The notes below the pieces were generated by a model. The model searched no databases and was not told where the DNA came from. It saw nothing but the letters and a program-made list of their open reading frames with translations. Source: Actinomycetota bacterium (GTDB lineage: Bacteria > Actinomycetota > UBA4738 > HRBIN12). Taken from it: DNA of 64,000 nucleotides. The stretch spans positions 2,416-66,415 of the forward strand of contig JACQDK010000073.1 of NCBI GenBank assembly GCA_016201135.1, given 5' to 3'. Positions 2,809 to 25,579 of the stretch are shown in pieces (the stretch's first letter is position 1; every line of letters begins with the position of its first letter). Made by a program: the position numbers and the translations under genes.

Positions 2809-3086
2809 GTCGGTCTCCCCATGACATCCGGGTGATCGCGGTGTCCGGAGTCAGTCGTCATCCTGCATCTCCGCTTGCCCCTGGCCCCGGCGAACAGGTT
2901 GAGTATGCCGCCAAGGCGCTCCACCCTGTCCCTGAAGTACTCGTACATTGCCCGCAGGCGCTTTCGCAGGTGTTCGTCGTCGGGGGCGAACGTCGCTCGT
3001 CGCCGTTGGGTGGAGCGTGCCTGTCCGACCAGGGCGCAGGCCATTCTCTCTGAGACCCCGAAGCGCCGGCAAAGGTGGGGGGCCAC
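2805..3086 (-). pseudogene. IS3-family transposase OrfB, N-terminal 93-aa fragment only
   Basis: HTH_21-like N-terminus (RRFGVSERMACALVGQ), then the ORF terminates. No integrase/DDE region follows. Confidence 0.65.
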
Positions 3087-11746: not shown

Positions 11747-12067
11747 CTATTCCCGGACTTCCATTCCCGGCCAGGAGCCCACACCGCGGACGTCGATCCA
11801 CTTCTTCCGCCAGCCCGCAAGGGCGAGCTTGAGGGCGGCGGGCGATTCGAGCCCCTCGTCGCTGAAGAAGAGTTCGAAATCCTCGCCACCGAACCGCCGG
11901 AACTCGTGCGGGTCCTTGGGAGCGTCGACCGAGGTGGCGAGGAACGAGCACCTGGGCCCGGTGCAGCGCAGCAGGTCCGCCCACACGTAGAGCCGGCCAC
12001 CATGCTCCCGGATGAACCCCACCGCCTCCCGGGAGGCAATGACTTTCACGTTGCCACCGCCCCTCAC
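11747..12067 (-). CDS. small hypothetical protein (GGRLYVW family; paralog at 22173..22478), 5 nt downstream of merA
   Basis: MRGGGNVKVIASREAVGFIREHGGRLYVWADLLRCTGPRC...FRRFGGEDFELFF. Aligns with 22173..22478 (VRVVASPEASAFIHGRGGRLYVWVTRLTCCG...FRELNAGDFLLF). Confidence 0.6.
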   Translation of the reverse strand: MRGGGNVKVIASREAVGFIREHGGRLYVWADLLRCTGPRCSFLATSVDAPKDPHEFRRFGGEDFELFFSDEGLESPAALKLALAGWRKKWIDVRGVGSWPGMEVRE

Positions 12068-12071
12068 GGTC

Positions 12072-13715
12072 TCACGCGGCGCAGCACGAGAGCATGGCCA
12101 CGTCTTTGCTGAACGTCTGCGAAGCGAGCTTCAGACCTTCCGCGATCGTGAGGTACGGGTGGAAGGTCTCCGCCACTTCCTTCACCGTCAAGCGGAACTT
12201 GATCGCGAGCACTGCCGACTGGATCACCTCACCGGCGCTCTCGCCGAGGATCGAGACTCCGAGGATCTCTTCCGTCGATGCGTCTGCCACGACCTTGATC
12301 AACCCCCTCGTCTCGCGGTTCACGATCGCCCGCGGGACCGATGACAGCGGGAGGACCGACGTCTTCACAGCCCGGCCTTGCTCCTCGGCCTGCGCCTCCG
12401 TCAGACCCGCCGACGCGATCTGGGGGCTGGTGAACGTGACCCTGGGCAGGGCCCGGAGATCCACGGTTCGGGAGGCGCCCTTCAGGGCGTTCTCGGCCGC
12501 CAGGTTGCCCTCGTAGGCGGAGACGTAGACGAATTGGGGCGCGGGCGTGCAGTCGCCGGCGGCGAAGACCCGCGGGTTCGTGGTCCGCAGGTGCTCGTCC
12601 ACCACGATGGCCCTACGCGGATCGAGCTGCACACCGGCCTCCTCCAGGCCCATCCCGGCCGTGTTCGGGATGCGGCCCGTCGCCACCAGCACCTGGTCGA
12701 CGGGGAACTCCCGGAGGGCCCCATCCACCTCCGCGTACACGATCCGCTTCCCGTCAGTCGCCGTCACCTTCACGATCCTGGCCGGGGCGAGGACCTCCGC
12801 ACCCTGGTCGCGGAGGATCCCGGTGAAGGCCTCGGAGACCTCGGGCTCCTCGAAGGGAGCGATCCGCTCGAGGACGTCGAAGAAGAACACCTTCGTCCCG
12901 AGGTGAAGGAAGAACTGGCCGAGCTCGAGGCCGATGGCGTTTGCCCCGATCACCGCCATCGACCCGGGCAGCTCCTTCAGGTCGAGCGCCGTCGTGCTGG
13001 TGAGGTAGCCAGCGTCCTGCAGCCCCTCGATCGGCGGCACCGCGGGGGATGCGCCGGTCGCGACCAGGTACGCGCCGGCCGTGATGGTACGGCCGTCGAC
13101 CGAGAGCGTGTCCGGACCGACGAACTCGGCATGGCCCGGGATCAGCTCGAAGCCATAGGCGTCCACGAGGTCGATGTACTTCTCCTGCCGCATCACCTCG
13201 ACGAGCTCGTCCTTCTGGGCGACGAGCGCGGCGAGGTCCGCCTTGCCGGCGGAGGTCTCCACGCCCGCGAAGTCCTGGTGGCCTGCCTGGAAGCAGACCT
13301 CGCCCGCCCGAAGCAGCGCCTTGGAGGGCACGCATCCCACGTTAACGCAGGTGCCCCCCACGGTCCCGTGCTCGACGAGCGCCACCCGCGCGCCCTGATC
13401 GCGAGCCTTGATGGCAGCCGCGAACGCCGCCGAGCCGGCCCCGATGATGAGCAGGTCGTACTCGGAGGCGTCGACCCTGCCAGCCCTCGAGCCCTCCGTC
13501 TCGAGCGCCTCGACCTTGCCGGGGCCGTAGCCCGAGTCCCGCACGGCCTCGGCGAAGCGGTCGACGCTGATGTCCTCGCCGACAGCGAAGACGGCCTCGC
13601 CCTTCCGCCAGTCCGCCGCCACCTCGCGCGCTCCGGCCCACTCGAGCGCTCTCGCAACGTGAAGATTGCAGGAGTCACAGGTCATGCCGGCCACTTCCAT
13701 CCGAAGCTTCGTCAT
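12072..13715 (-). CDS. merA: mercuric reductase MerA (N-terminal HMA domain + FAD/NAD(P)H disulfide oxidoreductase)
   Basis: GMTCDSC HMA motif, GGTCVNVGCVPSK redox-active disulfide, and the C-terminal SCCAA Cys pair. Confidence 0.9.
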   Translation of the reverse strand: MTKLRMEVAGMTCDSCNLHVARALEWAGAREVAADWRKGEAVFAVGEDISVDRFAEAVRDSGYGPGKVEALETEGSRAGRVDASEYDLLIIGAGSAAFAAAIKARDQGARVALVEHGTVGGTCVNVGCVPSKALLRAGEVCFQAGHQDFAGVETSAGKADLAALVAQKDELVEVMRQEKYIDLVDAYGFELIPGHAEFVGPDTLSVDGRTITAGAYLVATGASPAVPPIEGLQDAGYLTSTTALDLKELPGSMAVIGANAIGLELGQFFLHLGTKVFFFDVLERIAPFEEPEVSEAFTGILRDQGAEVLAPARIVKVTATDGKRIVYAEVDGALREFPVDQVLVATGRIPNTAGMGLEEAGVQLDPRRAIVVDEHLRTTNPRVFAAGDCTPAPQFVYVSAYEGNLAAENALKGASRTVDLRALPRVTFTSPQIASAGLTEAQAEEQGRAVKTSVLPLSSVPRAIVNRETRGLIKVVADASTEEILGVSILGESAGEVIQSAVLAIKFRLTVKEVAETFHPYLTIAEGLKLASQTFSKDVAMLSCCAA

Positions 13716-13737
13716 CGGTCTCCTCCTTGTCGCTCGT

Positions 13738-14337
13738 TCACCGAAGGCTTCCCCAAGACTCGCGGCCGAGCGCCTCGACTTGGGACAGACTCAGCACCTC
13801 TCCCCGCGGGTCGCCTGAACCTGCTCGCCAGGACCTCAGGTGCTCCTCGTCACAGAACAGGTTCGCCTGCGGGCACAGCTCCTCCCGCACGTTGGAGCAC
13901 GGGTCGGTTGGGAGCCACGCCACGAACCCGGGCTCGGAGGCGGGGCGCCCGCGCTCGAACTCGATCCAAAGCTCGCGGCCGCACTGTGGACAGGAAGTCG
14001 TCGCGAGGGCGTCCTGATCGAGGGCCGCGGGGATGCCGATCGCATCGATCGCGCACCACGTGTACAGCGCAACGCCGCCGAGGGTCAGTCGGTGCGAGGT
14101 CGGAAGCAGCGTGAGGCCGGCCGAGCCTACGACTCGACCATCCGTGTCGAGCTCGACCTGCCCGCCCGAGGCCAGCGAACGAAGGGCATCATCCACCTCA
14201 CCTACGGAGAAGCCCGTACCCTTAGCGATGGCCGCGGAACTCGCTACCTCGCCTCGGCGCAGGATCCGGAAGGCCAGTCGCCGCACGGCCTCCTCGCGCG
14301 GACCCCGGACGCGCTCGAGCACGTTGAGATCACCCAT
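13738..14337 (-). CDS. merB: organomercurial lyase MerB
   Basis: GVALYTWCAIDAIGIP and TTSCPQCG match the MerB catalytic Cys/Asp/Cys region. Start taken at MGDLNVLERV. Confidence 0.8.
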   Translation of the reverse strand: MGDLNVLERVRGPREEAVRRLAFRILRRGEVASSAAIAKGTGFSVGEVDDALRSLASGGQVELDTDGRVVGSAGLTLLPTSHRLTLGGVALYTWCAIDAIGIPAALDQDALATTSCPQCGRELWIEFERGRPASEPGFVAWLPTDPCSNVREELCPQANLFCDEEHLRSWRAGSGDPRGEVLSLSQVEALGRESWGSLR

Positions 14338-14339
14338 GG

Positions 14340-14705
14340 CTAGATCCAGTCCGGTCCGATGCGGCGGCATGTCGCCAGGTGATCGCGGTGCTCACCGACC
14401 AGGGATCGTGCCATGCGCATCAGGTCTCTCACGCCAGGGTCGGCGATGCGGTAGACGACCTGGCGGCCGCGGCGCTCGGCATCGGCGAACCGGCACCACT
14501 TCAGGCAGGCCAGGTGGTTCGAGACGCGACTCTGGGGCGCCCCAACGAGGCTCACCAACTCCGACACCGTGCGCTCGCGCTCGAGCAGGGCTTCGATGAT
14601 CCGGAGTCTGGTGGGATCGCCGAGGGTCCGGAAGTAGCGCGCCAGCGCCTCCGGCCCGCATGCGTCTTGCGAACCCGACCGGCTTCTTGCTTGCCTCGCG
14701 CCCAT
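14340..14705 (-). CDS. ArsR/SmtB-family transcriptional regulator (ArsR-type mer operon regulator)
   Basis: PTRLRIIEALLERERTVSELVSLVGAPQSRVSNHLACL winged-HTH. ATG with GGGAGGAGAG RBS. The upstream GTG-initiated extension has AT-rich third positions and is probably non-coding. Confidence 0.75.
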   Translation of the reverse strand: MGARQARSRSGSQDACGPEALARYFRTLGDPTRLRIIEALLERERTVSELVSLVGAPQSRVSNHLACLKWCRFADAERRGRQVVYRIADPGVRDLMRMARSLVGEHRDHLATCRRIGPDWI

Positions 14706-14725
14706 CTCTCCTCCCGGCCCGGCCT

Positions 14726-14748
14726 TACAACAGGATATCCTGATTGTA
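14726..14748. promoter_or_regulatory. palindromic operator candidate TACAACAGGATATCCTGATTGTA in the mer promoter
   Basis: Core CAGGATATCCTG (14731-14742) is a perfect 12-bp palindrome flanked by ACAA/TTGT arms. It lies 21-43 nt upstream of the ArsR-family ATG, between the zwf stop and the mer operon. Confidence 0.5.
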
Positions 14749-14767
14749 TCCCTCGCTTGCGCTTCCG

Positions 14768-16288
14768 TCACCCGGGGTGGTTCCAGCGCCTCGGGGCGAT
14801 CAGCGCGTCGGCCTCCCTCGGTCCCCAGGAACCGGGGAGGTACCGGTGGGGCGAGGGCGGATCGGCGAGCGCTGGCTCCAGGATCTCCCAGGCGCGCTCC
14901 ACTCCGGCACCCCCCGTGAAGAGCGTGCGGTCTCCCTGCATCGCGTCGTATAGGAGCCGCTCATACGCCTCGACGAGCCGGGACTTGAACGTCGGCTCGT
15001 ACCAGAAGTCCAGGGCCGCCTCACCGAGCGCGAGGGCGGCGCCGGGACGCTTCGCCATGAACGAGAGGAAGATCCCCTCGTCGGGCTGGATCCGGACCGT
15101 GAGGTGGTTGCCGCCACGCCCGTCCGAACGCGCGGACCGGAACAGCTCTATCGCGGGCTCCCGGAAGGCGATCGTTATCTCGCTCGTTCGGCGCGCCAGA
15201 CTCTTGCCGGTCCGCACGAAGAACGGGACGCCCCGCCACCGATCGTTCTCTACCTCGAGCCGGAGGGCGACGAAGGTTTCCGCCTGCGACGCGGAAGCGA
15301 CCCCCGGCTCGGACCGGTAGCCGAGGTACTGGCCGCGCACCACGTGGGACGGCTCCACCGGCCGGATGGCTCTCAGCACCCTCAGCTTCTCCGCGAGGAG
15401 GGCATCAGCGTCGAGGGACCCGGGCGGCTCCATGGCCACGAACGTCAGAACCTGGAGGATGTGGGGCTGGACCATGTCCCGGAGGGCGCCGACCTCCTCG
15501 TAGAACGAGCCCCTCCCCTCGATCCCGATGTCTTCGGCGACGGTCATCTGGACATGGTCCACGTGGCGACGGTTCCAGAGGGGCTCGAGGATGGCGTTGG
15601 CGAAGCGGAGGACGAGGAGGTTCTGGACGGTTTCCTTGCCCAGGTAGTGGTCGATCCGGAACACACGGGTCTCGTCGAACACGGCCGCGATCGCCCGGTT
15701 AAGCGCCCCGGCACTCGCCGCGTCGTGCCCGAACGGCTTCTCCACGATGACCCTTGACCCAGCCGCGAGCCCCGACTCTGCGAGCCCCCTGATCACCTCC
15801 GCGAACGCGGAGGGAGGCGTGGCCAGGTAGAAGAGCCGGCGGCCCTCCGTCCCGTGCTCCCGGTCCATGCTGCCGAGGTGTTCTGCCAAGCGATCGAAGG
15901 TCGCGAGGTCACCGAGGTCTCCCGACAGATGAGACAGGCCGGCCTCGAACCGCCGCCAGTCCGGGGCGTCGACGTCGCACCGGCAGAAGCTCTCGCTCGA
16001 GGTGCGGGCCCACCGCCGGAATCCCCCTGGATCGAGCTCGCTCCGGGACACACCGACGACCGCGTAGCGCTCGGGGAGGAGGCCCGCCACGCCGAGGTGA
16101 TACAGAGCCGGCAGCAGCTTGCGCCTCGTGAGGTCGCCGGAGCCGCCGAGGATCACGATGCTCTGTGGAGGCGGACGCGACAACCCGCCAGATTCCCCCC
16201 CGAGTGCTCCCCCCACGACCGGACCCACGCCGATCCTCGTCAAGGCCATGACGCCCTTAGTCGATAGAGCCGCTGGTTTGGGTCCCAT
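14768..16288 (-). CDS. zwf: glucose-6-phosphate 1-dehydrogenase
   Basis: SIVILGGSGDLTRRKLLPALYHL, EKPFGHD and RIDHYLGKE motifs. N-terminal start uncertain (alternative MALTRIG). Confidence 0.85.
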   Translation of the reverse strand: MGPKPAALSTKGVMALTRIGVGPVVGGALGGESGGLSRPPPQSIVILGGSGDLTRRKLLPALYHLGVAGLLPERYAVVGVSRSELDPGGFRRWARTSSESFCRCDVDAPDWRRFEAGLSHLSGDLGDLATFDRLAEHLGSMDREHGTEGRRLFYLATPPSAFAEVIRGLAESGLAAGSRVIVEKPFGHDAASAGALNRAIAAVFDETRVFRIDHYLGKETVQNLLVLRFANAILEPLWNRRHVDHVQMTVAEDIGIEGRGSFYEEVGALRDMVQPHILQVLTFVAMEPPGSLDADALLAEKLRVLRAIRPVEPSHVVRGQYLGYRSEPGVASASQAETFVALRLEVENDRWRGVPFFVRTGKSLARRTSEITIAFREPAIELFRSARSDGRGGNHLTVRIQPDEGIFLSFMAKRPGAALALGEAALDFWYEPTFKSRLVEAYERLLYDAMQGDRTLFTGGAGVERAWEILEPALADPPSPHRYLPGSWGPREADALIAPRRWNHPG

Positions 16289-16376
16289 GCCCGCGGGTCG
16301 CGGCTGCCACGGGCACGATCGTCGTTGCCTCGGGTTGCCGGGGAGTGGGGCCCGTCGTGGCCCGGCGCCCGGTGAC

Positions 16377-17336
16377 CTATGCGCGGACGGAACGGAAGGG
16401 CCGGAGGCCGATCCAACCGAGGAGCGCCGAGCAAGCGACGACGCCCGTCCAGAGGGCGCCCGGGTGAAGCGCGCCGCACAGCGCGGCCACCACGCCGATC
16501 GCCAGGAGCCCCGTCAAGGCCAGAGCGACGGTCGCCCGCGTCCTCGATTCCGGGTACCGACCGAGCAGGCGACCCACGCGGTAGCCGAGATCAGCCTCGT
16601 CGGCCAAAGCAGCGCTCGGAGCGGGCGCCGCACTCGTAAGGCCCACCTTCGCGATGGCCCGGGCGACGACCTCTGGGTCCCCGACCGCCCTCGCCGCATG
16701 GTCGTCGGCCGCCGCCTCCAGCTCCCGCCGCAGCGACGCGAACGCGCGTCGGGCAGGCGGGAGCACTCCGAACGCTTGCGTCATCACGTGGCCGACGAGC
16801 AGGAGGCCAGGATGGCCCCCCTGGACGTGGGCGACCTCATGAGCGACGGCCGCCCGCCGTTCCTCCTCGCTCAGGAGGTCCATGAGGCCTTGGGAGACGA
16901 CCACCCGCGCCCGCCGGAGACCTACGGCGAAGGCCACGGGCCGCTCGACCGGCAGGATGTAGACAGGCACTCCCTCCGGCGTTGCGGTCGGCTCGCCGAC
17001 GCTCAACCGTCGAGGCCCGACGGCGAGCGTCGCGCGAAGCGTCCTGACGGTCGCTACCGCGAGCCACCCGAGGATCGCGCCCACGACCCCGAGGGCGACC
17101 CACGCGAGGATCTGCCTGTCGTGCTCATGAGCTCCGTGAGAAGTTCCGCGCAGCAGCGAACCGGGCCCGGCGAGACAGAGCAAGAACGCGATCGGTGCAA
17201 CGGCAATCCCGATCAGAGCCCAGAGATGGAGCGCCGCGGCCACCCGCGGCGATGCGCGTCGATCGGACACGACCCCGCCGAGGGCGGGAGCGGCAAGGGC
17301 GAGCGCCCCGACCAGCGCGATGCCGGCCGCGTTCAC
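16377..17336 (-). CDS. M56-family metallopeptidase, BlaR1-like membrane signal transducer
   Basis: Polytopic N-terminus plus HEVAHVQGGH zinc motif. Start overlaps the stop of the BlaI-family gene (ATGA). Confidence 0.7.
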   Translation of the reverse strand: MNAAGIALVGALALAAPALGGVVSDRRASPRVAAALHLWALIGIAVAPIAFLLCLAGPGSLLRGTSHGAHEHDRQILAWVALGVVGAILGWLAVATVRTLRATLAVGPRRLSVGEPTATPEGVPVYILPVERPVAFAVGLRRARVVVSQGLMDLLSEEERRAAVAHEVAHVQGGHPGLLLVGHVMTQAFGVLPPARRAFASLRRELEAAADDHAARAVGDPEVVARAIAKVGLTSAAPAPSAALADEADLGYRVGRLLGRYPESRTRATVALALTGLLAIGVVAALCGALHPGALWTGVVACSALLGWIGLRPFRSVRA

Positions 17337-17719
17337 CGTGCGCTCCGTCCCCTACGCAACCGGTCGAGCGTCCTGAGCAGTTCCGGGTCCTTCGCCAATT
17401 CCTCGACGAAGTGCGCCAACACAGCCTTCGGATCCTCCGACGCCGCCAGGAGATCCTGGATCCTCCGGGCCTCGATCTCAGCGGGCGTCCCCGACGCCCG
17501 ATAGAGGTAGGCCCTCCCGGAGAGGACGCGCTCCGCCAAGCCTTTCCCGTGCAGTCGGGTAAGGACGGTCATCACGGTGGTGTAGGCCCGCTTCCGACCC
17601 TTCAGCTTCGACGCGATGTCACGTACCGAGAGCGGCTCCGTCGCGTCCCAGAGGCACCCGAGCACCTGGGCCTCGAGGGCCCCGATGCGATGCCCGGCTA
17701 CGATGCGGCTTCGCGTCAT
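17333..17719 (-). CDS. BlaI/MecI/CopY-family transcriptional repressor
   Basis: LEAQVLGCLWDATEPLSVRDIASKL...YTTVMTVLTRLHGKGL winged helix. Start taken at MTRSRIVAG. Confidence 0.7.
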   Translation of the reverse strand: MTRSRIVAGHRIGALEAQVLGCLWDATEPLSVRDIASKLKGRKRAYTTVMTVLTRLHGKGLAERVLSGRAYLYRASGTPAEIEARRIQDLLAASEDPKAVLAHFVEELAKDPELLRTLDRLRRGRSAR

Positions 17720-17799
17720 GCCACCCGCATGCTGGCCGCCCCACGCCACGTTCGTCAACCGGGAGGCAGCCGGCACCAGTACATTCGGCCTCATGACGC

Positions 17800-17811
17800 C
17801 ACACTAGTGTG
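17800..17811. promoter_or_regulatory. perfect palindrome CACACTAGTGTG upstream of the BlaI/CopY-family gene
   Basis: Read directly. It contains ACA...TGT arms like the TACAnnTGTA boxes of CopY/BlaI-family repressors. Confidence 0.4.
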
Positions 17812-18199
17812 CGAACGCATCGGAGAGCTCTCGCGCCGCGATCCGCGCGGCGGTGACGACCGCAACGCTCACCAGCAGGTACGTGACGATCGCCGTGGCC
17901 CCGGCGACCGCCAGGGTCACCGCGATCGAGGGAGCGCGCTCCGGCGGCGGGAGGCAGCGCCGCGCCCGCCGCAACGTCAGCCACCCGCTTACGACGAGGA
18001 TTGTCACTCCGGCTACGACGAACGGCCACCGGGCAAGCCCGATACCGACGCCGGCCGCCGCGGCGCCGACGCCGGCGCACGCGGTGCACAGTGCCGCAAG
18101 GACGGGACCAAACGACGGTACCGAAGCGAGGAGTCCGCCGAGCGCCCCGCGGCCGGCGCCGCGGGCGCACCCGTCAGCGATCGGAGTTCTGGTGTCCAC
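17804..18199 (-). CDS. membrane protein with CxxC (LCTACAG) at the start of a TM helix
   Basis: Two hydrophobic helices. Start uncertain. Confidence 0.4.
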   Translation of the reverse strand: MDTRTPIADGCARGAGRGALGGLLASVPSFGPVLAALCTACAGVGAAAAGVGIGLARWPFVVAGVTILVVSGWLTLRRARRCLPPPERAPSIAVTLAVAGATAIVTYLLVSVAVVTAARIAARELSDAFAH

Positions 18200-18416
18200 G
18201 CAAAGCCCGACTCCGTGCCCGCTTGAGCCTGCCCAGCTTCAGGCCGGCCCACACAGCGACGACGATCCCGAGAACGGTGAGCGGCCAGTAACGCACGGCG
18301 AGTCCTCCGGCCGCGGCGACGGCCCCCCCGGCCGTGATGGCCAGCAGTGGCACCGCGCAGCAAGCGATCATCGCCACCACGGCAAGCACCGTCCCCGTTC
18401 CACTGCCCTTACTCAC
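18174..18416 (-). CDS. small two-TM membrane protein with CCxxP motif (MerF/MerT-like metal-thiol transporter candidate)
   Basis: VLAVVAMIACCAVPLLAITAG. The CCxxP in TM1 recalls MerT (CCLGP) and MerF (CCFTP). Confidence 0.45.
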   Translation of the reverse strand: MSKGSGTGTVLAVVAMIACCAVPLLAITAGGAVAAAGGLAVRYWPLTVLGIVVAVWAGLKLGRLKRARSRALRGHQNSDR

Positions 18417-18452
18417 TCCCGCCGTCCCTTCCCGTTCCCGGCCCCAGATCGC

Positions 18453-19118
18453 TCATCCTGTCCCTTGGACGGCCTGCTGGAGGAGGCTCAGGTAGGCGGG
18501 ATCGGCCTGCACGTCGTTCACATCCTCTAGGACCCCTCGGCCGTTCAGAAGGAACTTCGTGTCGAGCGCTCGAAGGCTCACGGCCCGGGCGAACGTGTCG
18601 TTCTGATCGAGCGCGACGATCCAGTCGGGCCTCGCGAACTTCTCTCTCCAGCCCCTGAGGGCAGCAGGTCCCTCGGTCGTGTCGACGAACATGACGAGGA
18701 CGTTGAAGGCGTTCCCACCCAGCTGGTCGTCGAGCCGGGAGACCAGCTTCGCGCCCTCCTGGCACGGGAGGCAGTACGACGTCGTGAACCAGATGATCGT
18801 TGGCTTGCCGCTGAGTGAGTCTTTCGTCACGACGCGGCCGTCGACGTCGGTAACGCTGAACGCCGGGAATGGCTTTCCGATCCGGATTGCGCCCGCATCG
18901 ACGCTGACCCTTGGCGCCGTCGACCGGGCTACCGCCCCCGATGCCCGGCTCGGCTGGGGACTTCCCCTCGCGAACACGAGCGCGGTGGCGATCACCGCCA
19001 CGAGCACCACAACGGCCGCCGTCCCAAGCGCGCGGATGCGCTGGTTCCGGCGAGCAGCCTTCCGGCGGGTCTCGTGGGCTCGCGCTCGTGCCGGCTTGAC
19101 ACGGGTCTTCCCGCTCAT
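18453..19118 (-). CDS. TlpA/ResA-like thiol-disulfide oxidoreductase, membrane-anchored
   Basis: N-terminal TM anchor, thioredoxin fold, WFTTSYCLPCQEG. ATGA overlap with ccdA. Confidence 0.75.
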   Translation of the reverse strand: MSGKTRVKPARARAHETRRKAARRNQRIRALGTAAVVVLVAVIATALVFARGSPQPSRASGAVARSTAPRVSVDAGAIRIGKPFPAFSVTDVDGRVVTKDSLSGKPTIIWFTTSYCLPCQEGAKLVSRLDDQLGGNAFNVLVMFVDTTEGPAALRGWREKFARPDWIVALDQNDTFARAVSLRALDTKFLLNGRGVLEDVNDVQADPAYLSLLQQAVQGTG

Positions 19119-20047
19119 AGCTCACTCCTGGATCCGGACGCGGACGCGTCCAACGTCTCTTCTTCCAGCTCGCCAACCTCTGTCGAGGGTTCCTCGTCCT
19201 CTGGCACCCGGTCCCGCATCCGCCGGCCGACCAGCACGATCGCCGCTGCGAAGAAGAGCGCGACGCCGACCGCGAACCAAGCGCGCTCCCCGACGCGGGT
19301 GATGAGGTTCTGGGCGTCATCCTGGAGGGTTTGCATGAACCGGACCGGGCCACTTTCCGCGTTGCCCGACAGGAGCGAGAGCCAGTAGTACGCGACGTAC
19401 GCGCCGCTCAGAACCAGCAGACCGCCGCTGATCCTGCTCATGTATGGCATCACCAGACGGGTCCTGCGGATGAGCACGTCTCGGAACCCCGCGGTGGCGA
19501 GGCACAGGAGCATGAGGACCGTTGCCATCCCCAGGCCGTAGGCTGCGAAGACCCCTAGGATCCCCGACGCCGACCCCTGTGCGAGACCGGCCCCGATCAC
19601 CACGAGAAAGATGGGCAGCGTGCACGAGAGCGAGCCAACACCGTAGGCCACCCCGAATGCGAAGATCGAGCGGTACCCGGCGCCCCCCGAGCCGTGCCGA
19701 AGACCTGGAAGACGAAGAGCCAGATGCCGTCCGGCGAGGAGCCACAGACCTAGCACCATAAGGACTAGGCCGATCACGACCGTGACCCACGGGAGGAACC
19801 GGAGGACCGCCCGCGCCCCCAACGAGAAGACCAATCCGACCGACGCGAAGACGAGCAGGAAGCCGGCCGTCAAGACCAGGCCGACGACGAGGCCGTCGCT
19901 TACATGACCGGGTCGATCATCCTGCGGTGATCCGGCCCCCAAGTAGTAGGAGATGAAAGAAGGAAGCAGCGCGAACCCGCACGGGTTCACCGTAGCGACG
20001 AGGCCCGCGGCGAATGCAAGAGCTAGAGGCACTCCTCCGACCGTCAC
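19115..20047 (-). CDS. ccdA: thiol-disulfide electron transporter CcdA (DsbD family)
   Basis: VNPCGFALLPSF and GSLSCTLPIF conserved Cys motifs in a 6-TM protein. Confidence 0.8.
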   Translation of the reverse strand: MTVGGVPLALAFAAGLVATVNPCGFALLPSFISYYLGAGSPQDDRPGHVSDGLVVGLVLTAGFLLVFASVGLVFSLGARAVLRFLPWVTVVIGLVLMVLGLWLLAGRHLALRLPGLRHGSGGAGYRSIFAFGVAYGVGSLSCTLPIFLVVIGAGLAQGSASGILGVFAAYGLGMATVLMLLCLATAGFRDVLIRRTRLVMPYMSRISGGLLVLSGAYVAYYWLSLLSGNAESGPVRFMQTLQDDAQNLITRVGERAWFAVGVALFFAAAIVLVGRRMRDRVPEDEEPSTEVGELEEETLDASASGSRSEL

Positions 20048-20124
20048 CTACGCCCCTCCTTCCCGGTGCCGCGCTGACGACGAATCCGACGACACCGTGG
20101 TAGCGCCGAGGGCGGAGACGGAGG

Positions 20125-20775
20125 TCATGCAAGAGACCTCCCGACTGCCGCCTGCAGGGTTGCCCGGGATGTGAACCCCGAGTCCCGGAAGGTCACCTTG
20201 CCACTCGGGTCGATGACGACCGTGGTGCTGACGTCGATGACCCCGTACGACTGCGCCACCCGGAAGCCCACATCCTCGCCATACGCCATGTCGCCGCCGC
20301 CGAGGCTCCGGTAGTAGTTCGCCGCCTGCTGAGGTGACATACCGCTGTCGTCGACGACGAGCACGACGAGTCCCTGGCCCTTGAGCGCTTCCCACGTTTT
20401 CGTAAGCGTCGCGATCTCTGCGGTGCAACTGACACAGCCCTGTGCCAAGAAGTCGACGACCACCGTTCGGCCACGGTAGGACGACAGCCGAAACGTCCCA
20501 CCATCAGCCGTCGGGATGGCGAAATCAGGCGCGGTCTCGCCCGGCCTGCTGCCGAGTGGGGCCCGCCCGACGGAGGGCCGCGGGGCCCCCGCCGCAACGA
20601 CTGGACGTGAAGCTGAGGAATGGTCGGGCTCCCTCGCGAGAGCGAGATCCCAAACGACGTAGACGCCGCCGATCACAAGCCCCGCGACGACGAGGAAGAA
20701 GCCGGCTCGACGAACGATGCCCTGCCGGACCCCCGGCTCGGGCGCGCGGGCTCCCTCACACCTGTTCCCTGTCAC
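20125..20775 (-). CDS. TlpA-like thioredoxin-family protein (CVSC active site)
   Basis: APDFAIPTADGGTFRLSSYRGRTVVVDFLAQGCVSCTAE. GTG start overlaps the upstream stop (GTGA). Confidence 0.7.
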   Translation of the reverse strand: MTGNRCEGARAPEPGVRQGIVRRAGFFLVVAGLVIGGVYVVWDLALAREPDHSSASRPVVAAGAPRPSVGRAPLGSRPGETAPDFAIPTADGGTFRLSSYRGRTVVVDFLAQGCVSCTAEIATLTKTWEALKGQGLVVLVVDDSGMSPQQAANYYRSLGGGDMAYGEDVGFRVAQSYGVIDVSTTVVIDPSGKVTFRDSGFTSRATLQAAVGRSLA

Positions 20776-21773
20776 CGCTGAGGTTCCCTGGACATGACCT
20801 TGCGAACTTCCCGCGTGCCGATCGCGGCCGGTGTTCGGTGGCTCGCACCCGAACGCCGGATCCTGCGATCCAGAAGGACCACGTTCAACCCAAGGAGGAT
20901 GAGGGAGAGCCCCATCAGCACGGGCGTCGACCGGTAGAGCGCGCCGACCGCCACGCCGCCCGCGACGGCGGCGACCGGCGCCCCACAGCAGACGGGGACC
21001 GTCGCGAGCGCGGGCAGTGCCGCGAACAGTCCGTGGCGTCGCACCGAGCAGCGCTCGACGGCCGGGAGCCGGAGAGACAGCGAGACGGTCCGAGCGACCA
21101 GGACCGACCCCAAGGCCAAGAACCCGATCGTCACCCAGGGGATGATCGCCGACCACCGCCCAGCAACGACGATCCAGATGCCGGTAAGCCGCCATGACGG
21201 AAGCGGATAGATGCGGAAGAGGAACGACGGCCCGGACCAGGTACCCGCCTGGATCGGGGTGACGACCCCGGACGCAATGACCACGAGGGAGGCGAAGCCG
21301 GCCCCGATGGCGGCCGCGATCACGCGCCTCGCGAGTCTGGACGGCGATGGACCCACCGAGGGAAGGTTCGAAGCGAGGGCCACGATCGCGGCGATCTCAA
21401 GCACCGTCGCGACCACGCCCCAAAGCTCCACGGGCTCGGGCCTCGGGGCTCCCGGGGGTGGGATCAATCGCGTAGTCATCCAGGTGGCTACTAGCACGGC
21501 GCCTCCCCACAGCCCGATCCGATACACGCGGGGGCTTGGCATCAGGAGCAAGGCGAACGCCAGCCACAGCTGGAACGCGTCCGCGGCCAGGAAGAACAGG
21601 CCGAACTGCGGTCCGTCGCGGAAGTGTTCCGGGGTCAGGAAGAGGTGGACGTTCGCTGCCCCCAGCACGAGGGCCACCGTTAGGAAGGTGGCCGACGGCG
21701 ATATGGCCCGCGCCCCCGAGGCCGGCTCCGGCCAGTTGCTCAACTCCACCTCGTGAACGTCATGGACCTTCAT
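20772..21773 (-). CDS. polytopic membrane protein with C-terminal VPVCCGAPV motif
   Basis: 333-aa ORF, at least 8 hydrophobic helices, Cys pair in the last TM region. First gene of the redox/metal cluster. Confidence 0.5.
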   Translation of the reverse strand: MKVHDVHEVELSNWPEPASGARAISPSATFLTVALVLGAANVHLFLTPEHFRDGPQFGLFFLAADAFQLWLAFALLLMPSPRVYRIGLWGGAVLVATWMTTRLIPPPGAPRPEPVELWGVVATVLEIAAIVALASNLPSVGPSPSRLARRVIAAAIGAGFASLVVIASGVVTPIQAGTWSGPSFLFRIYPLPSWRLTGIWIVVAGRWSAIIPWVTIGFLALGSVLVARTVSLSLRLPAVERCSVRRHGLFAALPALATVPVCCGAPVAAVAGGVAVGALYRSTPVLMGLSLILLGLNVVLLDRRIRRSGASHRTPAAIGTREVRKVMSREPQR

Positions 21774-21787
21774 CCAGGAAGGGATTC

Positions 21788-21805
21788 TACTACGAGCGCG
21801 TAGGA
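21788..21805. promoter_or_regulatory. palindrome family copy 1: CTACTACGAGCGCGTAGGA (imperfect)
   Basis: Abuts an ATG at 21809. Shares the half-sites CTACTACG/CGTAG with copies at 22107, 22569 and 23393. Confidence 0.4.
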
Positions 21806-22106
21806 CTCATGCTCGAGGCCCGAGCGCTCCACAAGCAACGACCGGGGGTGTCAAACGTTTGCGCCGAAGTCGCCATCTTCGCCTGCGGGGCATCCTCGGC
21901 TCGGGACGTCGGGGACGTGATGTAGCACTGGTCGAGGAACTCGCCACAATCACGATGTCTGGGTGACGAAGCCACCAGCGCCGTGCGGCCCCACTTCGCA
22001 AGCGGCCGACCCTCTCGCACCAGGACCTTGTGTCTTGCTCCGCTACTTCCTCGCGAAGTTCAGCAGCCGGACCCCCCAGCAGCCTCGTCTCGTCGTTGCT
22101 CCAATC

Positions 22107-22126
22107 CTACTACGTAGCCGTAGTAG
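22107..22126. promoter_or_regulatory. palindrome family copy 2: CTACTACG-TAGC-CGTAGTAG (perfect 8-4-8)
   Basis: Read directly. Lies 47 nt downstream of the minus-strand gene 22173..22478. Confidence 0.5.
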
Positions 22127-22172
22127 CCCGTCGGCGGACATCGACGCGTAGTTCTTCTCTTGGCGGAACGCT

Positions 22173-22478
22173 TCAGATCGGGCCGTCCCAAGACGTCCTG
22201 ATCCGTTGATGCCACCGGCCTCGCACGCTCACCTCCATCTCAGCCGGCGGGTCGCCGATCGATGGATGCACGAAGAGGAGGAAGTCACCGGCATTGAGTT
22301 CCCTGAAGTTCGAGAGGCGCGAGGGCGCCTCCGTGGAGGTGTGAACAGTTCTCACCGACGCCCCGCAGCAAGTGAGCCTAGTCACCCAAACGTAGAGGCG
22401 GCCGCCTCTCCCGTGTATGAACGCACTTGCCTCGGGGGAGGCCACTACGCGAACCGGGCTCAGTCCCTCCTCGGCCAC
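22173..22478 (-). CDS. small hypothetical protein (GGRLYVW family; paralog of 11747..12067)
   Basis: MAEEGLSPVRVVASPEASAFIHGRGGRLYVWVTRLTCCGASV...FRELNAGDFLLFVHP. Confidence 0.55.
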   Translation of the reverse strand: MAEEGLSPVRVVASPEASAFIHGRGGRLYVWVTRLTCCGASVRTVHTSTEAPSRLSNFRELNAGDFLLFVHPSIGDPPAEMEVSVRGRWHQRIRTSWDGPI

Positions 22479-23050
22479 CTCCGGCGTGCCGACCGGGTGG
22501 GCCAGATCGAGCGGTGTCTTGCTCGTTGCTTGCCACGGCCCGCCTCCATCCTCGACTTCGCGATCGATCTACTACTTGATTGTAGGAGCTGCCACCTGCG
22601 GCTGCGGGTCTCGCTGAACTGGCTCGTCGCGGAGCCGCAACAGCAACCCCGCGAGGCCAAGAGGTAGACCGTCGTCGCCAGGAGCGGAGACAGGAAGAAG
22701 TTCCAGCCGGCGCCGACCATCAGCCGGTCGATCGCCCACGTCCCGCCGACGGCGGGGACGGCGAAGGCGTTCTCCCAGAGTGCCGCCGGGGGCCGCGCCG
22801 CCCGAATCGTCCGACCACGAGTAACGAGGAGGGCGAGCCCAACGTACGCGAGGGTGCCGCCGGCCACGAAGAGGAAGACTTCAGCCTGGGACGGAAGGCC
22901 GAACCTACCCAGACACAGGGCACCCGTGGTCCAGATGGTGAGCGTATAGCCGTATGGAACGCCGGCCTTGCTCACCACCTCGGTGAGCGACTCCGAGATC
23001 TTCAGTCCCGGTACTCCTTCGTCGATGCCCAGGGATCGTTCTTGCAGCAC
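22460..23050 (-). CDS. hypothetical membrane protein (C-terminal tail low-complexity, possibly misframed)
   Basis: N-terminal 150 aa are protein-like with about 4 TM helices. The C-terminal 45 aa (GCCCGSATSQFSETRSRRWQ...) look non-protein. Confidence 0.45.
   Translation of the reverse strand: MLQERSLGIDEGVPGLKISESLTEVVSKAGVPYGYTLTIWTTGALCLGRFGLPSQAEVFLFVAGGTLAYVGLALLVTRGRTIRAARPPAALWENAFAVPAVGGTWAIDRLMVGAGWNFFLSPLLATTVYLLASRGCCCGSATSQFSETRSRRWQLLQSSSRSIAKSRMEAGRGKQRARHRSIWPTRSARRRWPRRD
22569..22588. promoter_or_regulatory. palindrome family copy 3: CTACTACT-TGAT-TGTAGGAG (two mismatches)
   Basis: Lies inside the low-complexity 3' tail of ORF 22460..23050. Confidence 0.4.
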
Positions 23051-23346
23051 TCGTCCTCATCGTCGTCGGGCTCAAGATCTGGGTCAGTGGCGGTCTCCGG
23101 CTCCGTGTCCGCGCTCCAATCGAGCCGCTGTGGGGCACACCAGCACATGCAAGCCTCCCTTCGGTCGTCATTCTCATTAGTCGTGCTTGACTCGATGCAG
23201 GGCGCGTTTTCGTGCGGCGGCTGGTAGGAACCTCGGGTGAGCCGAACGAGCTCCGCCCGCCGAGGTGTATCGGGCAAGAGAGCCTGTCGATGGGACTCAC
23301 CTACACACCCCTCGCAGGTCATGCCGTGGAACCGCATCCGCTTCAT
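23002..23346 (-). CDS. Cys-rich acidic protein with N-terminal GMTCxxC-like motif (metal-binding candidate)
   Basis: MKRMRFHGMTCEGCV... CMCWC ... DEDECC. 8 Cys in 114 aa, with a D/E-rich tail. Mixed codon third positions. Confidence 0.4.
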   Translation of the reverse strand: MKRMRFHGMTCEGCVGESHRQALLPDTPRRAELVRLTRGSYQPPHENAPCIESSTTNENDDRREACMCWCAPQRLDWSADTEPETATDPDLEPDDDEDECCKNDPWASTKEYRD

Positions 23347-23392
23347 GGGCCACCCCCTCGTCCTCCACCGGCGTCCGACGCTGCGCTCGAAT

Positions 23393-23416
23393 CTACTCCT
23401 ACCCGGCAGTAGTAGG
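23393..23416. promoter_or_regulatory. palindrome family copy 4: CTACTCCTACCCGGCAGTAGTAGG (same half-sites, longer spacer)
   Basis: About 45-70 nt upstream of the start (23346) of the Cys-rich protein gene. Confidence 0.4.
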
Positions 23417-23445: not shown

Positions 23446-24459
23446 TCAGAAGTGACGGAACAGGCTCGCCGCGTTCGCATCGGCCCGCGAGATCCAGGTC
23501 AGGGCGACCCAGCCGATCGGAAAGGCCATGACCAGATGGGCGAGGAGCGGCCAGAGCGGGAACCACTTCGGGAACCTGATGGCGGGCATCATCGGCGGCA
23601 TCACGACCATCATCGCCAGCCACACGAAGACGCCCCAGGCGAAGGCCAGCCCCCAGTTCCCGTCGCCGGCCAGCATCGTGTACATTATCCCGAAGCTCAC
23701 CCCGTTCAGCGCGTGCCAGGTGTAGCCCCAAAGTGTCACCTTGGCTCGGGAGGTCCCCGTCTCCTCGAGTGTGTCGGGAAGCGCCCTGGAGGCGAGGTGA
23801 CGAAACGTGTTCATCGGTATCTTGGGCAGACCGCGAGGCTGCGAGTATGGGAGCCCGTCCACCCCCTGGGCGGCCTCATCCATCGCCCGCATCAAGATCA
23901 GACGGGTCTCCTCCGGAAGCTCCGCCAGCACCGCCATCTGGGTGGCCATGACCTGCCGGCGAGGCGGATCCGGGAGGCGCCCCAGTCCGGCCATCATGGC
24001 CCCGACGACGGCTCGGCGCTTGGCGGGCTCCAATCTGGCGACGGCGGGGAGCCGAACGGCCATCATCCGCCGGCGTTCCTGTTCGGGGACCCGGGAAAGG
24101 TGCTCGACCAGGCGGCCGATCATGTTGCGCTGAAAACGCGGGGCATCTCCCAGGGCGATGACCCCGAACATCATGGGCATGTCCATGGGGAAGAGGCGCA
24201 GGCCCAGCCCGATGAGGCGGACGATGTCCAGGGCGATCGTGGCCAGGAGGCCGCCCAGGGCCCCCCAGGCAACCAGCTGGACCACCGGCTCGTCCTGCGC
24301 GATTCCGTAGATCATCAGCGCGGCGTAGGCGATCAGAGCGGGCACCCCCAGGTGCCGGATCACCTTCGGAGCGGGAACGCCGAGGATCCGGTCGGCGAGG
24401 AGCAGTGTGATGGGGCCGGCGGTGAGCGCGAACAGCGGGATCAAGAGCCACCAGTTCAT
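23446..24459 (-). CDS. membrane protein with central ELPE-type repeats (paralog of 7640..8962)
   Basis: Start MNWWLLIPLF with GGGAGG RBS. Repeats LPDPPRRQVMATQMAV / LAELPEETRLILMRAM, flanked by N- and C-terminal TM blocks. Confidence 0.6.
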   Translation of the reverse strand: MNWWLLIPLFALTAGPITLLLADRILGVPAPKVIRHLGVPALIAYAALMIYGIAQDEPVVQLVAWGALGGLLATIALDIVRLIGLGLRLFPMDMPMMFGVIALGDAPRFQRNMIGRLVEHLSRVPEQERRRMMAVRLPAVARLEPAKRRAVVGAMMAGLGRLPDPPRRQVMATQMAVLAELPEETRLILMRAMDEAAQGVDGLPYSQPRGLPKIPMNTFRHLASRALPDTLEETGTSRAKVTLWGYTWHALNGVSFGIMYTMLAGDGNWGLAFAWGVFVWLAMMVVMPPMMPAIRFPKWFPLWPLLAHLVMAFPIGWVALTWISRADANAASLFRHF

Positions 24460-24491
24460 GACGAACCTCCCAGAGAGCGTTTCTCCAGTGA

Positions 24492-24924
24492 TTTGGTCGA
24501 GGAGGAGGCGACATCGGGTCCCCGGTTCCGCCTCCTGTACGACGGGCGCTGCGGGTTGTGCGGCCGGTTCGCCGGGCCCGCCGGGCGGCTGGACCGACAG
24601 GGTCGGCTCGCCCTCCTGCCCTTCGACGATCCGCTCGCGGCAGTAGATCTGGCCCGCCTCCCAGACGAGAAGCGCTACTCGGCGTTCCACCTGGTGGCTC
24701 CGGCCGGAAGAATCCGGAGCGGAGAGGAGGCGGTGCTTCCCACCCTGGACCTGCTCGCCGGCGGGAAGGAGCTCGCGGCCGTCCTCCGCCTGGCTCCCGG
24801 CGGCGAGCTAGCGGTGCGGGGAGCGTACCGGTGGGTGGCCCGGAATCGCACGACCCTGGAGCGGTTGTTTCCGGATAGCAGGGATCGCAGGAAATCCTGT
24901 GACGTTGAACGAGATGGAGGGTGA
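24492..24924 (+). CDS. DCC1-like thiol-disulfide oxidoreductase family protein (DUF393)
   Basis: RFRLLYDGRCGLCGRF...RLALLPF. Hidden inside the long spurious ORF 23452..24924. TTG/alternative start uncertain. Its end overlaps the sigma-factor start. Confidence 0.5.
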
Positions 24925-24928
24925 GCGC

Positions 24929-25579
24929 CGCATGGTGAGCCGGACCGATTGGGCCGAACTGACGGACGAGGAGCTCGCGATCCGGTGCTCGGAGCACGTC
25001 GCCGGCTGCATGGACGAGCTCGTCGGCCGGTACGAGCAGCGGGTGCGGGACTGCGCCCAGCGGATGAGCCTGGATCGGCAGGACGCCGAAGACGCGGTGC
25101 AGGAGATCTTCCTCCGCATGGTGAGCTCGCTGCCTCGGTTCCAGGGGAAGTCGGCCTTCGCCACCTGGATGTACCGCCTCTCCCACAACACGTGCATCGA
25201 CGCGTTCCGCAAGGGCACCCGAGACAAAGAGCACCGGCTCACGACGGTTCCCAAAGACGAAGAGGGGGATCCGCTGGATCGCGTCGCGGCGAAGTTCGGA
25301 GACCCCGAGGCGGAACTCGACGCCACGATCCAGGAGTGCTACCTGGGGCAAGCCCTAGCCGGCCTCCCGGAGAGTTATCGGGACATCGTCCGCCTGCGCC
25401 TCGGGGAGGGGCGATCGAACGGGGAGGTCGCCCAGCTCCTCGGGACGACCGTCGACTCGGTGAAGTCGAAGCTGCGGCGCGCGCGCAAGCTCCTGCAGGA
25501 GCGCCTGCTCGAGCGGCGATCCTGCCCGATCTGCAAACAGATGGGCCCCTTCAGGCTGGAGGCATCGGGGGTCGACTGA
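24929..25579 (+). CDS. ECF-type (sigma-70 family) RNA polymerase sigma factor
   Basis: Region 2 (DAEDAVQEIFLRMV, FATWMYRLSHNTCIDAFR) and region 4 (YRDIVRLRLGEGRSNGEVAQLLGTTVDSVKSKLRRAR). ATG preceded by GGAGGG. Confidence 0.75.
   Translation, partial: RMVSRTDWAELTDEELAIRCSEHVAGCMDELVGRYEQRVRDCAQRMSLDRQDAEDAVQEIFLRMVSSLPRFQGKSAFATWMYRLSHNTCIDAFRKGTRDKEHRLTTVPKDEEGDPLDRVAAKFGDPEAELDATIQECYLGQALAGLPESYRDIVRLRLGEGRSNGEVAQLLGTTVDSVKSKLRRARKLLQERLLERRSCPICKQMGPFRLEASGVD

Follow-up and report, generated by a model that had tools for sequence, protein, structure and literature searches.

Among the closest described systems, the mercury resistance (mer) locus of Streptomyces lividans consists of divergent merAB and merRTP operons (PMC5312570), and actinomycete proteins with TrxA or CcdA domains have been given names such as 'mercury transporter' and 'Mercury resistance operon ORF3' (PMC12195606, Table 4). 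The passage of Hg(II) through the membrane of high-GC Gram-positive bacteria is poorly characterised, and no biochemical study of the CcdA- and thioredoxin-like 'mer transport' genes bearing these names was found in the literature searched. The locus considered here lies in a 64-kb stretch of contig JACQDK010000073.1 (hereafter the window, meaning the whole stretch), from the high-GC (~69%) metagenome-assembled genome (MAG) of an uncultured 'Actinobacteria bacterium'. It comprises eight genes, designated P1 to P8 (16377-21773; the locus tag of P1 is HY240_07855), which code for Cys-pair membrane proteins, thiol redox proteins and a BlaI-type repressor with a membrane protease. On balance, we favour reading them as the envelope half of an extended mer locus of the actinobacterial type, that is, as a BlaI-repressed operon for Hg(II) uptake and thiol relay, which is probably regulated by this penicillinase-type repressor/membrane protease pair instead of by the usual mercury sensor.

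All eight open reading frames (ORFs) given in a preliminary description of the sequence were recovered on the minus strand, with the same coordinates and Cys motifs. P1 (20772-21773) codes for a protein of 333 residues with the motif VCCGAP at residues 261-266. It is followed by the TlpA/ResA-like P2 (20125-20775; CVSC motif, AhpC-TSA match with E 2.7e-16), whose GTG start overlaps the P1 stop codon and is best set at 20775, the CcdA-like P3 (19115-20047), and the TlpA-like redoxin P4 (18453-19118; CLPC motif, Redoxin match with E 4.9e-9). Next come two small membrane proteins, the two-helix P5 (18174-18416, 80 residues) and the CxxC protein P6 (17804-18199, 131 residues), then the BlaI/MecI-family winged-helix repressor P7 (17333-17719, in an ORF open to 17794) and the M48/M56-type membrane zinc metalloprotease P8 (16377-17336; HEVAH motif, E207). 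The proposed overlaps between genes can be read directly in the sequence, as GTGA at P1/P2, ATGA at P3/P4 and GTGA at P7/P8. On the same strand, P8 is followed by a glucose-6-phosphate dehydrogenase (G6PD) paralogue (14768-16288), which also comes after the protease gene in three related loci (L001, L005 and L025; related loci are numbered in this way throughout), and by an ArsR/SmtB-family metalloregulator (14340-14771; HTH_5 with E 2.3e-14, NF033788 with a score of 84.3 vs 55), which overlaps the G6PD stop by 4 nt and occupies the position of MerR in actinobacterial mer operons. Further along are the organomercurial lyase MerB (13738-14370; PF03243, E 2.9e-25), the mercuric reductase MerA (12072-13715) and, starting 4 nt after merA, a small CC/Se-motif-like Cys protein (11747-12067). 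MerA scores 555.8 bits with the TIGR02053 equivalog model (cut-off 454.45), carries an N-terminal HMA domain and ends in a C-terminal CC pair (...SCCAA). A second G6PD paralogue is found at ~59676-60955 (46-57% identical to the first), so the copy beside the mer genes is an extra, dedicated one.

The genes at 11747-21773 are separated by 4-nt overlaps or short gaps. Neither terminator-like sites (5 found in the region vs 4.3 expected) nor a scan of the region for the sigma-70 consensus showed an excess over chance, so that the limits of the operons are drawn from spacing and from conserved promoters read by eye. Given the short spacing and the lack of a terminator excess, 11747-21773 is best regarded as one co-directional array of 14 genes which includes P1-P8, G6PD, arsR, merB and merA. 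The eight genes had been described as an island next to the mer operon; they are better seen as that portion of an actinobacterial-type mer locus which is devoted to transport and thiols.

Compared with a mer locus of the S. lividans 1326 type, the array has the same ArsR-family regulator, MerA and MerB, together with a small two-helix Cys-pair protein, a CxxC protein with a thioredoxin fold, either membrane-anchored or a lipoprotein, and a homologue of CcdA. It differs in being a single co-directional array, in the addition of P1, the 131-residue P6, a second TlpA and the dedicated G6PD, in having a BlaI/M48 pair with its own candidate operator for the transport part, and in a CcdA which lacks a C-terminal CC pair. 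A TlpA-type or thioredoxin-like protein and CcdA are likewise encoded next to merA and merB in four plasmid mer operons (L019, L020, L021 and L026); the plasmids compared were Mycobacterium pSMC-4_3, Rhodococcus pCP2, Arthrobacter pJ340-69 and a Streptomyces longwoodensis plasmid (L026). Three of the four operons (L019, L020 and L026) also code for a small membrane protein, annotated as hypothetical, which has the same hairpin architecture as P5; it carries CCxxP in L019 and L020, and the one from Streptomyces gives a weak MerT match. All mer-linked CcdA proteins share the motifs VNPCGFA(L/M)LP and SL(S/A)C. Since TlpA and CcdA, with or without the small CC protein, sit in plasmid mer operons, the known actinobacterial module for mer transport makes up the core of the locus, and what is new in the window is the P1 family, the three related hairpins described below and the BlaI/M48 tier with a defined candidate operator. 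In the Streptomyces plasmid operon, a VKOR-family protein (5030-5665) is encoded after the thioredoxin-like and CcdA genes, with a second mercuric reductase gene further downstream.

The order P1-P8 is kept in five independent contigs (L001, L005, L006, L024 and L025) at 57-77% P1 identity, and the arrangement is not a product of chance. In L001 and L005 (73-77% P1 identity), P1, TlpA, CcdA, the second TlpA, the 80- and 131-residue proteins, BlaI, M48 and G6PD follow each other in this order, with ArsR-MerB-MerA after G6PD in L001 and merA directly upstream of P1 in L005. At 56% identity (L003, L004 and L008), the order is ArsR-MerB-MerA-P1-TlpA-CcdA-CCxxP, with no BlaI/M48. In L009, P1, a CCxxP protein and CcdA come straight after merA, which directly precedes P1 in L011 as well. 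The more distant P1 homologues of L013, L014 and L016 (~35% identity) are encoded beside merA, with TlpA, CcdA and small CC proteins near. Despite these rearrangements, merA lies within 10 kb of P1/TlpA/CcdA in 12 of the 13 assessable loci, i.e. those with enough flanking sequence. When the search was started from the protease (L022-L025), the BlaI-M48 pair always adjoined a redoxin/CcdA/P1 module and merA was present on every contig; the repressor and its sensor-less M48/M56 protease travel with the module in one lineage. A 66-67-residue rhodanese and a CBS-pair protein are encoded after merA in L001 (19969-20640) and after the P1 module in L003 (12818-13510), and thereby recur in the company of these mer loci.

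P1 matches no Pfam or NCBIfam model and none of the Mer families. Its 43 close homologues, nearly all of them from Actinomycetota MAGs or metagenome contigs, are equally devoid of Pfam domains. The AlphaFold model (predicted local distance difference test score, pLDDT, 77.8; predicted template-modelling score, pTM, 0.68) consists of eight helices and a small beta domain, and has no significant neighbour among PDB structures. From the N- to the C-terminus, the protein is laid out as a 4-helix domain with the motif HLxLTPEHFxE, the small beta domain and a Cys-pair hairpin (PVCCGAP). A profile search among 1.84 billion representative sequences returned 2785 proteins at E<=1e-3; among the best 150 of these, the full-length architecture is found in ~30 clusters, and most of the other proteins align to the N-terminal 4-helix domain only, for which there is no Pfam model. 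All full-length members, down to 27% identity, have the CC pair without exception, whereas the cytoplasmic loop carries a single, partly conserved Cys (ERCS). According to the positive-inside rule applied to the helices of the model, both the His/Glu motif and the CC pair would face outward. P1 represents a new protein family, recognisable by the invariant CC pair and by the 4-helix domain with its His/Glu motif at the N-terminus.

Fusions of the P1 N-terminal domain occur in longer proteins, where the partner is a DUF305, multicopper oxidase, cupredoxin/plastocyanin or CopC domain. This brings up a different explanation for the locus, namely that it is a general system for extracytoplasmic thiol, disulfide or copper stress under BlaI/M48 control, and that its proximity to mer genes reflects a shared metal island but not a shared function. 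TlpA and CcdA normally serve the maturation of cytochrome c and CuA, which agrees with this explanation, as do the distant locus L015, which has P1, TlpA, CcdA and small CC proteins with no merA within 10 kb, and L025, where arsR-merA lies ~9 kb from the module. We nevertheless consider it rather improbable: merA recurs within 10 kb in all the other assessable loci and in several gene orders, and genes for cytochrome c maturation, Sco, CopA or CopC are absent from the cluster. Moreover, TlpA/CcdA genes are found in the compact plasmid mer operons, in three of four cases together with the small CCxxP/MerT-like protein, and two of these operons are located beside Tn3-family transposase genes. 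Owing to the recurrent link with merA and the known mer module, Hg is much better supported than copper or general oxidants, the two other stresses for which the locus had been proposed.

The C-terminus of P1 aligns with P5 and P6 as one hairpin architecture. A Cys-pair helix leads into a Gly-rich turn and an (R)(Y/x)WP or TP motif, after which come the second helix and a basic tail. The Cys pair of the first helix reads VCCGAP in P1, IACCAVP in P5 and LCTACAG in P6. The importers MerT, MerF, MerC, MerE and MerH are built alike, with a vicinal or CxxC pair in the first helix of the hairpin, which takes the form CCxxP in P5 and P1; they differ in that P5 and P6 lack a second Cys pair, on the cytoplasmic side, for the hand-off to MerA, and in that P1 carries, joined to its hairpin, a small beta domain and an unrelated 4-helix domain of the His/Glu kind. 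Classification with hidden Markov models, as suggested in the preliminary description, gave faint MerC, MerT and MerE matches for P5. Among 16 relatives of the hairpins these were the only recurrent metal families (MerT in three, with a best E of 1.7e-6, MerC in three and MerE in two), all below threshold. The most distant of the 10 P6 homologues has a Pfam MerT match, and P6 may be regarded as a distant MerT-like CxxC protein. The likeness of P5 to MerF/MerT thus holds for its Mer-type hairpin, and membership of the MerT, MerC or MerE families does not follow from its scores.

Both redoxins, P2 and P4, have a thioredoxin fold preceded by a basic N-terminus and a hydrophobic helix, which places the domain outside the membrane. 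Since they fall short of the equivalog cut-offs (48.8 vs 170 for ResA, 30-34 vs 230 for TlpA), they are members of the TlpA/ResA group at the family level only. P3 has no Pfam match at E<=0.1; it aligns over its full length with the CcdA of Thermus (5VKV, phmmer E 0.042) with both catalytic Cys in register, and is 37-49% identical to plasmid genes annotated as CcdA by the Prokaryotic Genome Annotation Pipeline (tblastn E 2e-41 to 1e-20). Its Cys motifs, VNPCGFALLP and SLSCTLP (helices 1 and 4), are retained by every mer-linked CcdA homologue. These features are those of the CcdA-TlpA/ResA pathway of cytochrome c and CuA maturation, i.e. a CcdA with two membrane Cys and thioredoxin-fold CxxC partners anchored on the outside, but the genes around them are merA and merB and not ccm, res or cta genes. 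The mer-linked CcdA proteins of cultured strains (L019, L020, L021 and L026) end in a C-terminal CC pair (DCCTP, SCCAPD, SCCGPE, DCCAPQ), which is reminiscent of the cytoplasmic Cys pairs of MerT and MerF and of the MerA C-terminus. That a CcdA-TlpA thiol pathway works together with Cys-pair membrane proteins in handling a thiophilic metal, as had been supposed, is in line with all of this.

The CcdA-TlpA pathway is an established route for the export of reductant, and the module could accordingly protect and repair the envelope and not import Hg at all. CcdA and TlpA would then export reductant by which Hg-damaged extracytoplasmic thiols are re-reduced or de-metallated, the Cys-pair proteins would sequester Hg(II) at the membrane, and MerA would handle only the Hg that leaks in. 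Neither the window CcdA nor its MAG relatives have the cytoplasmic CC pair which a relay to MerA should possess, the locus codes for two distinct CxxC redoxins that face outward, the G6PD provides NADPH, and in L001 and L025 a gene for a ClpP-like protease lies behind the same operator as the module, suggesting a damage response. Such a role is nonetheless unlikely in our view, given that Mer importers use hairpins of this CCxxP type, that the module is co-transcribed directly after merA in L003 and L009, and that sequestration with no reduction would saturate.

A palindrome, TCCTAC-N6-GTAGTAG, forms a conserved footprint upstream of P1 in the window and in six other loci within otherwise unconserved DNA, and is a candidate operator for the BlaI repressor. 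Its core, CTAC-N6-GTAG, occurs four times exactly in the window against 0.11 expected (none of 100 shuffled sequences matched this), and all four occurrences are at 21790-23412, as three perfect copies of the 18-mer and one palindrome with arms of 8+8 bp. The first perfect copy (21787-21804) overlaps the -10-like TAGAAT of the P1 promoter, and the palindrome, CTACTACG-GCTA-CGTAGTAG (22107-22126), lies in the 400-bp spacer upstream of P1. The second copy (22569-22586) is ~90 nt upstream of a gene for a small CC/Se-motif protein. The third, CCTAC-N6-GTAGTAG (23398-23415), is just past the stop of the gene for a 414-residue membrane protein and ~50 nt upstream of ORF 23002-23346 and the gene for a 196-residue membrane protein. 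In the related loci the box is also located before ccdA in six cases, before a ClpP-like gene in L001 and before the divergent blaI/P1-like promoter in L022. Ten loci have exact cores, every one of them of the blaI type, and loci devoid of blaI, the plasmid operons among them, have none; a short contig with blaI (L023) has no box either, and the region upstream of P1 is not on that contig.

Upstream of P1, the box and a -10 hexamer of the form TANNNT (in the window, TAGAAT) overlap; the hexamer ends ~10 nt before the start codon, and this position implies a near-leaderless P1 mRNA. The blaI-M48 pair has a conserved promoter of its own, TTGACG-N18-CAGCAT (17729-17758, minus strand), and since it ends 9 nt before the ATG at 17719, a BlaI of 128 residues, read from this codon, is probable and its mRNA would again be near-leaderless. 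With this promoter, and with the conserved operator located elsewhere, the pair is not the oddity at the end of an operon that it had been taken for. The BlaI-family box originally put forward, CACACTAGTGTG, was discarded. It occurs once, at 17800-17811, where it overlaps the P6 stop codon, and it is not conserved, the orthologous loci having GCGCACTGAGGTCG or similar; the palindrome that is conserved lies outside the region initially delimited. The BlaI/MecI operator TACANNTGTA (PMC7253601), to which the comparison is limited, has TAC/GTA half-sites in common with CTAC-N6-GTAG and a different spacing. Within the 400-bp spacer upstream of P1 (~21900-21950), a relic of 16 residues (EFLDQCYITSPTSRAE) corresponds to the C-terminus of the ClpP-like protease. 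The gene is intact behind its BlaI-type box in L001 (9239-9925), and is present in L025 too.

P7 is assigned to PF03965 with 70.3 bits (cut-off 22.6, E 2.2e-19), and aligns over its full length with the BlaI proteins of M. tuberculosis (2G9W, E 6.9e-14, the best solved relative) and S. aureus (1SD4). Its HF dipeptide aligns with NF of the S. aureus protein, which we take to be the N101-F102 cleavage site. It had been proposed to be a BlaI/CopY-family repressor, of which the BlaI part stands. P7 shares with CopY/TcrY the repressor family and the control of a metal-related operon, but it has no C-terminal CxCxxxxCxC metal site (its single Cys is in GCLW, within the DNA-binding domain), scores 25.3 with the NCBIfam CopY_TcrY model (cut-off 121.95) and has a partner protease. 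Direct metal sensing in the manner of CopY is ruled out by the absence of the C-terminal Cys motif, and the protease gene next to blaI implies that inactivation is proteolytic and not by metal binding.

The BlaI-BlaR1 and MecI-MecR1 systems of Firmicutes, as well as the pair of M. tuberculosis BlaI (Rv1846c), are similar in that the PF03965 repressor gene overlaps, stop to start, the gene for a membrane HExxH zinc protease, and in the palindromic candidate operator with TAC...GTA half-sites over the P1 promoter. P8 had been labelled a BlaR1-like M56 peptidase. It is an HExxH protease encoded beside blaI, and its match to the BlaR1 fold is weak; with the Pfam models, M56 fails (18 vs 31) and M48 passes (45.4 vs 20.3), and an identical protein is named 'M56 family metallopeptidase' by NCBI. 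A sequence-profile search of the PDB returned HtpX only. The model of P8 (pLDDT 82.7, pTM 0.83) gave Foldseek matches of weak E to the Ste24-type M48 protease ZMPSTE24 (0.042) and to the transmembrane and protease part of S. aureus BlaR1 (8EXS/8EXR; probability 0.94-0.99, E 0.08-0.3, template-modelling score 0.36-0.45). H166, E167, H170 and E207 are invariant. So are C54, C287, H291 and C302 within the subfamily, whereas more distant M56-like proteins do not have these four residues, which are compatible with thiol or metal sensing.

The PF03965 repressor and the BlaR1-like fold of its protease would also fit a classical system that senses beta-lactams or cell-wall antibiotics and is found here by chance. 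We hold this to be very improbable, because the 319-residue protease ends after its last membrane helices, with no penicillin-binding sensor domain and no match to a transpeptidase or beta-lactamase domain, because there is no beta-lactamase or penicillin-binding protein gene in the cluster or in any related locus, and because all operator sites precede genes for thiol or metal membrane proteins, which make up the predicted regulon. The pair had been considered an unusual partner for thiol redox genes, and this is supported; literature searches for BlaI and BlaR1 together with mercuric reductase found nothing relevant. The same holds for searches for merA with CcdA and thioredoxin.

Returning to the BlaI-repressed operon for Hg(II) uptake and thiol relay, we infer its biochemistry, the direction in which Hg would move and the inducing signal as follows. 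Hg(II) would be taken up at the membrane by the three paralogous Cys-pair hairpins of P1 (C-terminus), P5 and P6, and the two outward-facing TlpA-like proteins and CcdA would relay it from dithiol to dithiol, or, alternatively, would keep outward-facing thiols reduced with cytoplasmic thioredoxin. Inside the cell it would be handed to MerA, and organomercurials to MerB, with the dedicated G6PD regenerating the NADPH used by the thioredoxin pathway and by MerA. A BlaI-family dimer is predicted to bind the TCCTAC-N6-GTAGTAG operators and to repress the P1-led operon and neighbouring genes, further candidate targets being the gap before ccdA, the ClpP-like gene in relatives, the gene for the small CC protein and that for the 196-residue membrane protein. 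The sensor-less M48/M56 protease would inactivate BlaI upon an envelope signal, for which Hg(II) or thiol damage is the best guess. Transcription may read through into G6PD-arsR-merB-merA, where the ArsR-type regulator would add control by cytoplasmic Hg(II). One may go further and suppose that P8 itself is a membrane-embedded sensor which detects Hg(II) or other thiol-reactive agents by means of C54, C287, H291 and C302 and then cleaves BlaI, or that P1, with its copper-associated His/Glu domain and Mer-type hairpin, belongs to a new class of Hg(II) transporters; we put this forward tentatively, as a possibility more doubtful than the operon itself.

Several observations weigh against Hg(II) uptake under BlaI control. 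P5 is below the family thresholds (MerC 16 bits vs 27.6, MerT 13.7 vs 32.9), and the window copies of P1 and P6 have no match to the MerT, MerF, MerC or MerE models. To these must be added the C-terminal CC pair that is missing from the window CcdA, the merA-free locus L015 and the copper-protein fusions of the P1 N-terminal domain, which are suggestive of a possible copper role. On the regulatory side, the box in the 77-nt gap before ccdA is degenerate in the window (20086-20103, two mismatches) and exact in the orthologous loci, and the blaI promoter has no box except in L022.

The DNA around the array contains further genes that recur with it or resemble parts of it. The small Cys-pair protein encoded behind the second perfect box (22173-22478, minus strand; TRLTCCGAS) is a paralogue, with 38% identity, of the one encoded 4 nt past merA (11747-12067), so that the two bracket the island. 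Both are below the cut-off of 40 bits for the CC/Se motif (seleno)protein family NF041239 (27 and 23 bits), and they may be cytoplasmic carriers of Hg or thiols. The 196-residue membrane protein (22460-23050, minus strand), which belongs to no family, has homologues downstream of G6PD or merA in L005, L024 and L025 and is a conserved companion of the locus. ORF 23002-23346 (minus strand) has a low GC content at third codon positions, and opens with MKRMRFHGMTCEGCV, an HMA-like GMTCxxC motif (GMTCEGC). It has no Pfam match at E<=1 and is not claimed as a gene; it could be what is left of a metallochaperone gene, or an ORF that arose by chance. The 414-residue polytopic protein (23446-24690, minus strand), also of no family, is divergent from a gene for an extracytoplasmic function (ECF) sigma factor (24899-25579, plus strand). 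In L001 and L025 both genes are conserved upstream of the P1 module; in L005 and L011 only the membrane protein gene is. Further away, the gene at 436-2850 (minus strand) codes for a TOTE conflict-system archaeo-eukaryotic primase domain (PF22548, E 1.2e-74) fused to a ResIII/DEAD helicase, and is a candidate anti-phage or conflict-system gene.

For the actinobacterial mer systems, the locus represents a richer and well-delimited transport module, with a new invariant-CC family linked to merA and a dedicated source of NADPH. It also offers a predicted regulatory circuit in which a BlaI-family repressor with a defined 18-bp candidate operator is paired with a sensor-less protease that has Cys and His residues specific to its subfamily. 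In environmental Actinomycetota from sites relevant to Hg, mer genes could be better annotated with the help of the P1 profile and the operator. If the protease does answer to Hg or thiol damage, BlaR1-type signalling would no longer be confined to beta-lactams, nor the regulation of mer to MerR and ArsR; were P8 itself the sensor, it would be the first BlaR1-type transducer of a metal signal and would provide mer regulation with a second tier at the level of the envelope.

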